From Escherichia coli (GTDB lineage Bacteria > Pseudomonadota > Gammaproteobacteria > Enterobacterales > Enterobacteriaceae), in the NCBI RefSeq assembly GCF_003334305.1, contig NZ_QOWS01000015.1: 64,000 nt of DNA. The stretch is one strand, 5' to 3'. The position numbers and the translations under genes were made by a program. Below, one piece after another: positions 45,649 through 45,950 of the stretch. How positions within the stretch are numbered: position 1 is the stretch's first letter; every line of letters begins with the position of its first letter. Under the pieces are notes generated by a model. It saw nothing but the letters and a program-made list of their open reading frames with translations. It ran no database searches and was not told the DNA's origin.

Positions 45649-45749
45649 TACAACCTCTTCTCTTTTTATGTTCGCTTAATCGTAGCGGCAATATGCGCTG
45701 AAGCAAGCTACTCATTCCGAAAAAGCACGAATATCGACATAGTTAGGCG

Positions 45750-45776
45750 CTGTTTAACTAACGCATGCTAGTTTAA
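45750..45776 (+). promoter_or_regulatory. possible PhoP-box-like repeat upstream of mgrB
   Basis: TGTTTAA...TAGTTTAA repeats of the PhoP half-site (T/G)GTTTA about 35-55 nt upstream of the mgrB GTG; spacing is not the canonical 5 nt, so assignment is uncertain. Confidence 0.3.
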
Positions 45777-45806
45777 TGACATAAGGTAGGTGAAGCGGAG
45801 ATTGGA

Positions 45807-45950
45807 GTGAAAAAGTTTCGATGGGTCGTTCTGGTTGTCGTGGTGTTGGCTTGCTTGCTGCTTTGGGCGCAGGTATTCAACATGATGTGCGATCAGGATG
45901 TACAATTTTTCAGCGGAATTTGTGCCATTAACCAGTTTATCCCGTGGTGA
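45807..45950 (+). CDS. mgrB: PhoQ-inhibiting small membrane protein MgrB
   Basis: Read from sequence: GTG 45807 then [46 protein letters not shown], stop TGA 45948-45950; below the ORF-track size cut-off. Confidence 0.9.

Follow-up and report, generated by a model that had tools for sequence, protein, structure and literature searches.

The mgrB gene of an Escherichia coli contig and the elements of its PhoP-activated promoter

The DNA analyzed here, called the window, is a stretch of 64,000 nucleotides from Escherichia coli (contig NZ_QOWS01000015.1). The open reading frame (ORF) at 45807–45950 is mgrB, a well-studied core gene with a PhoP-activated promoter that has already been annotated and published. 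An earlier note on this DNA had described a 47-codon, GTG-initiated mgrB ORF that is absent from the ORF track, and both points were confirmed by running the ORF listing at a 20-aa cut-off. The ORF is displayed only below the default cut-off of 60 aa. Its omission reflects the length cut-off only, and the RefSeq annotations of K-12 (b1826) and other E. coli genomes do list mgrB. The short ORF alone is no evidence for the gene because 45 ORFs of at least 20 aa overlap the same 2.5 kb. The gene and its control elements are listed in Table 1.

Table 1. Coordinates of mgrB and its upstream elements in the window.
Feature	Coordinates	Strand	Description
Distal conserved block	45707–45725	-	GCTACTCATTCCGAAAAAG on the plus strand; homologous to the reverse-oriented second PhoP box of Salmonella
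Proximal PhoP box, direct orientation	45740–45756	+	TAGTTA (45740–45745), GGCGC, TGTTTA (45751–45756); at the -35 position
Extended -10	45766–45774	+	TG (45766–45767), C, TAGTTT (45769–45774); assigned from conservation
5' leader (inferred), 27 nt	45780–45806	+	by homology to the S1-mapped Salmonella start
Shine-Dalgarno GGAG	45797–45800	+	6 nt upstream of GTG; 94–100% conserved
mgrB CDS	45807–45950	+	GTG start 45807–45809, 47 codons, TGA stop 45948–45950; from the ORF list

The genomic surroundings were compared with sequenced strains. Strain E2865 has identical DNA, and its RefSeq annotation gives the order kdgR, yobH (minus strand), mgrB (plus strand), yebO, yobF, cspE/cspC, and rlmA. K-12 MG1655 has the same gene order with mgrB as b1826, "PhoQ kinase inhibitor," and the kdgR-yobH-mgrB-yebO context is conserved in both annotations. 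The K-12 MgrB protein is identical to that of the window. The K-12 mgrB promoter (PmgrB; b1826, formerly yobG) shares the coding sequence, PhoP box, -10, Shine-Dalgarno sequence, and GTG with the window, and it has the same neighboring genes, kdgR, yobH, yebO, yobF, and cspC. Between 45640 and 45960, the window and the b1826 region differ by two intergenic single-nucleotide changes only. Position 45709, inside the distal block, is T in the window and G in K-12, and position 45795, two bases before the Shine-Dalgarno sequence, is G in the window and A in K-12. The segment 45300–46400 is matched by 5425 of 5426 complete E. coli genomes at 95–100% identity, and the features underlying these matches are yobH, mgrB, and yebO. 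The 251 bases covering promoter and gene (45700–45950) are present in 5424 of the 5426 genomes and are full length in 5420.

The protein family assignment is unambiguous in both profile collections. The NCBIfam equivalog NF007635 matches with 89.9 bits (curated cut-off, 40) across residues 1–47 of a 47-position profile, and Pfam PF13998 matches with E = 2.8e-18. The protein has the layout that the family predicts: about 47 residues, with a hydrophobic segment at the N-terminus and with C28, C39, and a terminal tryptophan in a conserved C-terminal part. The length is 47 aa in 78 of 81 orthologues. Invariant residues in the orthologue alignment are W20, C28, D29, D31, V32, F34–C39, N42, and P46, and W47 is 99% conserved. 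Pairwise identities at codon positions 1, 2, and 3 are 0.79, 0.91, and 0.57 in the 78 mgrB orthologues of equal length, and synonymous variation is present at every invariant residue. These data show that the mgrB reading frame is under purifying selection. A structure sequence search found no solved structure with detectable sequence similarity to MgrB.

The position of the start codon is fixed by its surroundings. An in-frame TGA lies upstream at 45777–45779, GTG 45807 is the first canonical start after it, and no ATG occurs in this frame before codon 26 (codons 26 and 27 are ATG ATG). Because of the upstream TGA and the distance to the next ATG, GTG 45807 is the sole canonical start that retains the N-terminal hydrophobic segment. 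An alternative upstream start is ruled out by the TGA; the lone near-cognate codon, ATT at 45801, is not conserved, and the consensus there is AGT. The curated NF007635 profile begins at the same residue as the GTG-initiated protein, and over-long database entries from Klebsiella aerogenes and Lelliottia carry valine at the GTG codon. A GTG to GTA change at the mgrB start has been reported as inactivating in colistin-resistant Klebsiella pneumoniae.

The upstream region was examined by comparing species. The mgrB locus was taken from 80 other Enterobacteriaceae species (81 with the window), and the 75 bases upstream of the start were aligned, giving 79 distinct sequences. Conservation falls into the sharp islands GTTA, GTTTA, TG-n-TAnnnT, and GGAG. 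The GTTA at 45742–45745 is 92–100% conserved, and the GTTTA at 45752–45756 is 100% conserved. These cores lie in the two half-sites of the proximal PhoP box, a hexamer-N5-hexamer direct repeat with the canonical 11-bp period. This two-hexamer form with its 5-nt spacer is found in 78 of the 81 species, and the other three have a 1-nt spacer variant. In these three, two Superficieibacter (L071 and L072) and the metagenome-assembled genome UBA5654 (L074), the box has one extra base between the half-site cores and reads CAGTTAAC(G/C)CCCTGTTTA about 60–45 nt upstream of the start.

Motif searches differ sharply in their value at this box. The pattern AGTTA-N5-KGTTTA has a single match in the 64-kb window compared to 0.02 expected, and that match is the proximal box. 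The box has two mismatches to the PhoP consensus, both half-sites considered; TAGTTA matches (T/G)GTTTA at four of six positions, and the upstream half-site (C/T)AGTTA matches at three to four of six positions across species. The loose literature consensus with two mismatches is unselective and gives 22 sites in the window compared to 14.9 expected. The proximal box is supported by its conservation and a published Salmonella footprint, not by motif statistics. Screens with a strict consensus miss the mgrB box because its upstream half-site deviates. In a Shigella genome screen that used the strict PhoP consensus, mgrB is unmentioned. A full-text literature search with the box sequence gave no match.

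The Salmonella orthologue provides the experimental reference. Zwir et al. (2012) analyzed 23 Salmonella promoters, locating starts by S1 nuclease mapping and phosphorylated PhoP (PhoP-P) binding by DNase I footprinting. Salmonella yobG, the old name of mgrB, was assigned to architecture II with a direct box, ACAGTTACTCCTGGTTTAA, in a PhoP-P-protected region. The box is 12 nt from the -10 TAATTT, transcription starts 5 nt after the -10, and the leader is 26 nt (Zwir et al., 2012). The earlier note had suggested alignment to characterized mgrB promoters as a check. Salmonella, Klebsiella, Enterobacter, and Citrobacter were aligned with the window, and the Salmonella elements fall opposite 45739–45757 (direct box), 45769–45774 (-10), approximately 45780 (start), and 45707–45725 (second box). 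The proximal box at 45740–45756 thus coincides with the footprinted yobG/mgrB box. In both promoters a direct box precedes a weak TAnnTT -10 by 12 nt, and both have a distal block further upstream, a short leader, and a GTG start. The box reads ATAGTTAGGCGCTGTTTAA in E. coli compared to ACAGTTACTCCTGGTTTAA in Salmonella, and the -10 hexamers are TAGTTT and TAATTT. The E. coli leader is 1 nt longer, and 5 of the 19 positions in the distal box are not shared, with the E. coli form further from the half-site consensus. The limits given for the E. coli box and its start site rest on conservation and these Salmonella data. The K. pneumoniae mgrB orthologue (L034) has this promoter layout as well, together with a GTG start; in the best tblastn segment its protein shows 70% identity, and its -10 is TATCCT.

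The same geometry recurs in the single-box PhoP promoters of mgtA, phoP, yrbL, and yoaE, which place an 11-bp direct repeat 12 nt before the -10. Their boxes have two good (T/G/C)GTTTA half-sites, whereas the upstream half-site of mgrB is the deviant (C/T)AGTTA. The yoaE promoter is itself in the window. A near-perfect PhoP box, TGTTTAACTCCCGTTTA, is located at 52791–52807 on the plus strand between manX (51553–52524, minus strand) and yoaE (52987–54543, plus strand), 12 nt upstream of TATAGG and approximately 180 nt before the yoaE start. With its flanks, this 19-mer is identical to the already published Shigella flexneri yoaE site footprinted by PhoP-P. YoaE was recently renamed MgpA, a CorC-type protein that protects from excess Mg2+. 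The yoaE and mgrB boxes together give two PhoP-controlled promoters in the window.

Downstream of the box, conservation points to an extended -10. The TG is 97% conserved, T45769 90%, A45770 100%, and T45774 99% in the 79 distinct upstream sequences. Positions 45771–45773 are variable, GTT in E. coli with a consensus of ACC, and 45775–45776 are AA in E. coli with a consensus of GG. Most species have TAACCT as the hexamer, and common readings of the region are TAACCTGG, TAATTT, and TATCCT. The gap between the box and the -10 (45757–45768) is 12 nt, and it is 12 nt in 69 of 69 species with a scored TAnnnT hexamer. The mgrB transcript likely starts at C45780 or A45781 by analogy with Salmonella, and A45781 is 94% conserved. 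The extra base of the E. coli leader is placed at 45788 by the alignment. The Shine-Dalgarno GGAG is followed by a conserved TGGA and then the GTG. No significant RNA structure was detected in the leader, since leader plus early coding sequence folds like its shuffled versions (z = 0.16), and an Rfam scan of 43000–49000 returned no RNA family at mgrB. On the folding result, a structured regulatory leader at mgrB was rejected. A generic sigma-70 promoter and terminator scan returned nothing at the mgrB promoter. The missing sigma-70 match is expected because this is an activator-dependent promoter without a -35 hexamer; the scan outcome is uninformative at PmgrB and lends it no support.

These assignments change the operator that the earlier note had proposed. 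It had pointed to TGTTTAA and TAGTTTAA as PhoP half-site-like repeats with non-canonical spacing, and both strings are indeed present, at 45751–45757 and 45769–45776. The idea that PhoP binds this pair with an unusual 19-bp spacing draws on their rarity: GTTTAA-N13-GTTTAA occurs once compared to 0.08 expected. The broader form GTTTAA-N8-16-GTTTAA also occurs once in the 64-kb window compared to 0.08 expected, and it was matched in 8 of 100 shuffles. The two GTTTAA copies begin at 45752 and 45771, and their 19-bp separation is at odds with the 11-bp tandem-dimer geometry of a PhoP box. The first copy is conserved in orthologous promoters (GTTTA 100%), and the second is not conserved as a half-site. 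TAGTTTAA sits at the required -10 position, where conservation takes the form TAnnnT after TG, not GTTTA, and most species have TAACCTGG. TGTTTA has a canonically spaced partner in the upstream TAGTTA, which shows higher conservation and agrees with the Salmonella footprint. We regard a 19-bp operator as extremely improbable. TGTTTAA is retained as the promoter-proximal half of the true box, and TAGTTTAA is reassigned to the -10 (TG-n-TAGTTT). The odd spacing arose from pairing the wrong elements, and TAGTTA restores a canonical N5 box 12 nt from the -10. That half-site and the distal block had both been missed. A second role for the GTTTAA over the -10 can be imagined, in which it is an Escherichia-specific extra PhoP half-site that competes with RNA polymerase at very high PhoP-P and caps mgrB expression. 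PhoP boxes that overlap the -10, as at ugtL, are expected to repress (Zwir et al., 2012), and among the 81 species the GTTTA form of the -10 is confined to the window and Escherichia sp. L003. However, this would be a single half-site, the hexamer 11 bp upstream (TAACGC, 45759–45764) does not resemble one, and conservation there is confined to the -10 positions. No data on PhoP repression through a -10-overlapping mgrB half-site were found in the literature searched. This proposal is very unlikely, scarcely more credible than the 19-bp operator, and the reading as a plain -10 hexamer is preferred.

The distal block has two possible owners. The second box of Salmonella yobG, in reverse orientation, is GTTTTTAGGAATGATTCAC (Zwir et al., 2012, Table 1), and its complement aligns to 45707–45725 with 14 of 19 positions identical. 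Of the 81 species, 74 carry the core ATTCC(T/G)AAA, at a modal offset of 26 nt from the proximal box. Its half-sites are poor in E. coli. By analogy with Salmonella, the block may add to mgrB activation. The other reading is that it is not an mgrB PhoP site in E. coli, but an UP-like or activator element of the divergent yobH promoter, just upstream of a putative -35 TTGCTT (45706–45701) and -10 TACGAT (45684–45679). On the minus strand the block directly adjoins a conserved TTG(C/T)TT (plus strand ACAAG, without variation in the alignment). Viewed from yobH, its orientation is direct and the putative -10 follows at 22 nt. The best-conserved segment of the block is TTTT(A/C)GGAAT and not two clear half-sites, and the Salmonella distal box was given the lowest box score, 0.61 (Zwir et al., 2012). 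Against the yobH reading, two protected sites were reported in the Salmonella yobG promoter (Zwir et al., 2012), Salmonella yobH is reported to be apparently not PhoP/PhoQ-regulated, and the yobH promoter elements are putative readings of the bases. The two roles are also compatible with each other. We consider an exclusive yobH role unlikely, though far less so than either operator proposal above, and a possible contribution to mgrB activation is the reading adopted here. The layout on the minus strand at 45679–45725, upstream of yobH (45409–45648, minus strand), has TTGCTT followed 16 nt later by TACGAT and resembles PhoP "architecture III." A PhoP-regulated yobH acting through the block was considered as well, and it is weakened by the report that places Salmonella yobH apparently outside PhoP/PhoQ control.

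Published experiments on E. coli bear out PhoP control of the mgrB promoter, which the half-site-like repeats of the earlier note had tentatively suggested. The promoter is a positive control for PhoP binding in electrophoretic mobility shift assays, and it is activated through PhoPQ on magnesium withdrawal. PmgrB was the brightest PhoP reporter and is induced by low Mg2+ (Lippa and Goulian, 2009). The same work describes MgrB as a 47-aa inner-membrane inhibitor of PhoQ that provides negative feedback, and the K-12 protein is identical to that of the window (Lippa and Goulian, 2009). We are nearly certain that mgrB and its PhoP-activated sigma-70 promoter are the negative-feedback arm of PhoQ/PhoP magnesium and antimicrobial-peptide sensing. 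Gene identity, start codon, promoter layout, and conservation were observed here; for PhoP binding, the Mg2+ response, and PhoQ inhibition we rely on published work. Homology to Salmonella is the basis for placing the exact transcript start and for the proposed role of the distal block.

The elements suggest the following sequence of events. Activated PhoQ would yield phosphorylated PhoP, which would bind the direct repeat TAGTTA-N5-TGTTTA (45740–45756) as a tandem dimer. The repeat would stand in for a -35 hexamer and precede the extended -10 TG-C-TAGTTT (45766–45774) by one helical turn (12 nt). PhoP-P at the -35 position would recruit RNA polymerase in a class II manner, the mode described for PhoP promoter architecture II (Zwir et al., 2012), and the distal block (45707–45725) may add to this activation. 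Transcription would start near 45780 and produce a short, unstructured leader with a good Shine-Dalgarno GGAG. Translation from GTG 45807 would produce the 47-residue inner-membrane MgrB, and its periplasmic C-terminal part, with the conserved C28, C39, and W47, would inhibit PhoQ and close the feedback loop.

The start codon itself is uniform across the family. Of 81 Enterobacteriaceae species, 80 start mgrB with GTG and one, Kluyvera cryocrescens (L015), with TTG; no species uses ATG. Two orthologue matches begin at residue 2 and have a GTG directly upstream. Two-fold synonymous sites within the gene are mixed: K3 is AAA in 40 and AAG in 38 orthologues, Q33 is CAA in 39 and CAG in 39, and Q22 is CAG in 43 and CAA in 35. 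Given this near-even mix of G and A, a neutral G/A start position would have switched many times over the tree. The non-ATG start may be a selected feature, a weak codon behind a strong invariant Shine-Dalgarno sequence that limits MgrB per transcript, an idea drawn from the alignment that we hold tentatively and rate at slightly under an even chance. If true, a low MgrB dose would let the feedback give partial adaptation without shutting PhoQ off. The TGGA before the GTG is also conserved, so a constraint other than dosage is possible. A literature search of incomplete coverage found no paper on a selected weak mgrB start. The absence of ATG starts across the family is the one mildly new observation at mgrB. 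It offers a testable candidate for dosage tuning of a feedback peptide.

MgrB sets the gain of PhoQ/PhoP signaling. It is chiefly in Klebsiella that loss of mgrB leads to colistin resistance. The earlier note had stated this for Enterobacterales. The statement is accurate for Klebsiella, where resistance following mgrB loss is documented clinically, and reports on E. coli link the loss to trimethoprim tolerance. Earlier annotations and publications already cover the gene, the GTG start, and regulation by PhoP; the present analysis adds a corrected map that places the promoter elements on the window. The map also carries a lesson for motif reading, that a -10 hexamer can mimic a PhoP half-site and that mgrB has a genuine upstream half-site which departs from the consensus.

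Several features were noted around the gene. A promoter-like site (TTAACC-17-TATCAT with a TG) lies in the last mgrB codons at 45928–45956, and a terminator scan found no terminator-like hairpin between mgrB and yebO (45951–46024). Together these suggest that yebO may have two sources of transcription, a promoter of its own and read-through from PmgrB. The approximately 650 bases between yebO and yobF (46313–46960) have no ORF of at least 60 aa and no feature annotated in K-12 or E2865. The sole match in this gap is to CRISPR-DR25 at 46592–46618; it is below threshold (22 bits compared to 36) and probably due to chance. An Rfam match to the cspA thermoregulator at 46961–47421 on the plus strand scores 135.7 bits with a gathering score of 78. 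It spans yobF (46981–47124) and the 5' end of cspC, and the small ORF yobF is therefore inside a cspA-type 5' leader.

Natural variants of the locus were also recorded. Two human isolates, E. coli 2015C-3121 (L083, positions 522–1219) and JNEC-KY203, carry an IS1 within the 3' end of yobH. Disruption of mgrB by the IS1 in these top BLAST matches was ruled out, as the insertion is in 3' yobH, outside mgrB and its promoter. A full-length mgrB copy is missing in 4 of the 5424 matching genomes. In strain 744, only the last 45 bases of mgrB are matched and kdgR is annotated under the match, which suggests from the sequence that a deletion removed the promoter and most of mgrB. Public MgrB entries include N-terminally over-extended calls of 58 aa with valine at the true GTG, stop-loss read-through forms of 62–64 aa, and frameshifted forms beginning MGRSG that start from an ATG in the +2 frame at 45821. 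These atypical entries (proteins P0023, P0026, P0001, P0004, and P0051–P0056) illustrate how frequently the small GTG-initiated mgrB is mis-called or mutated.
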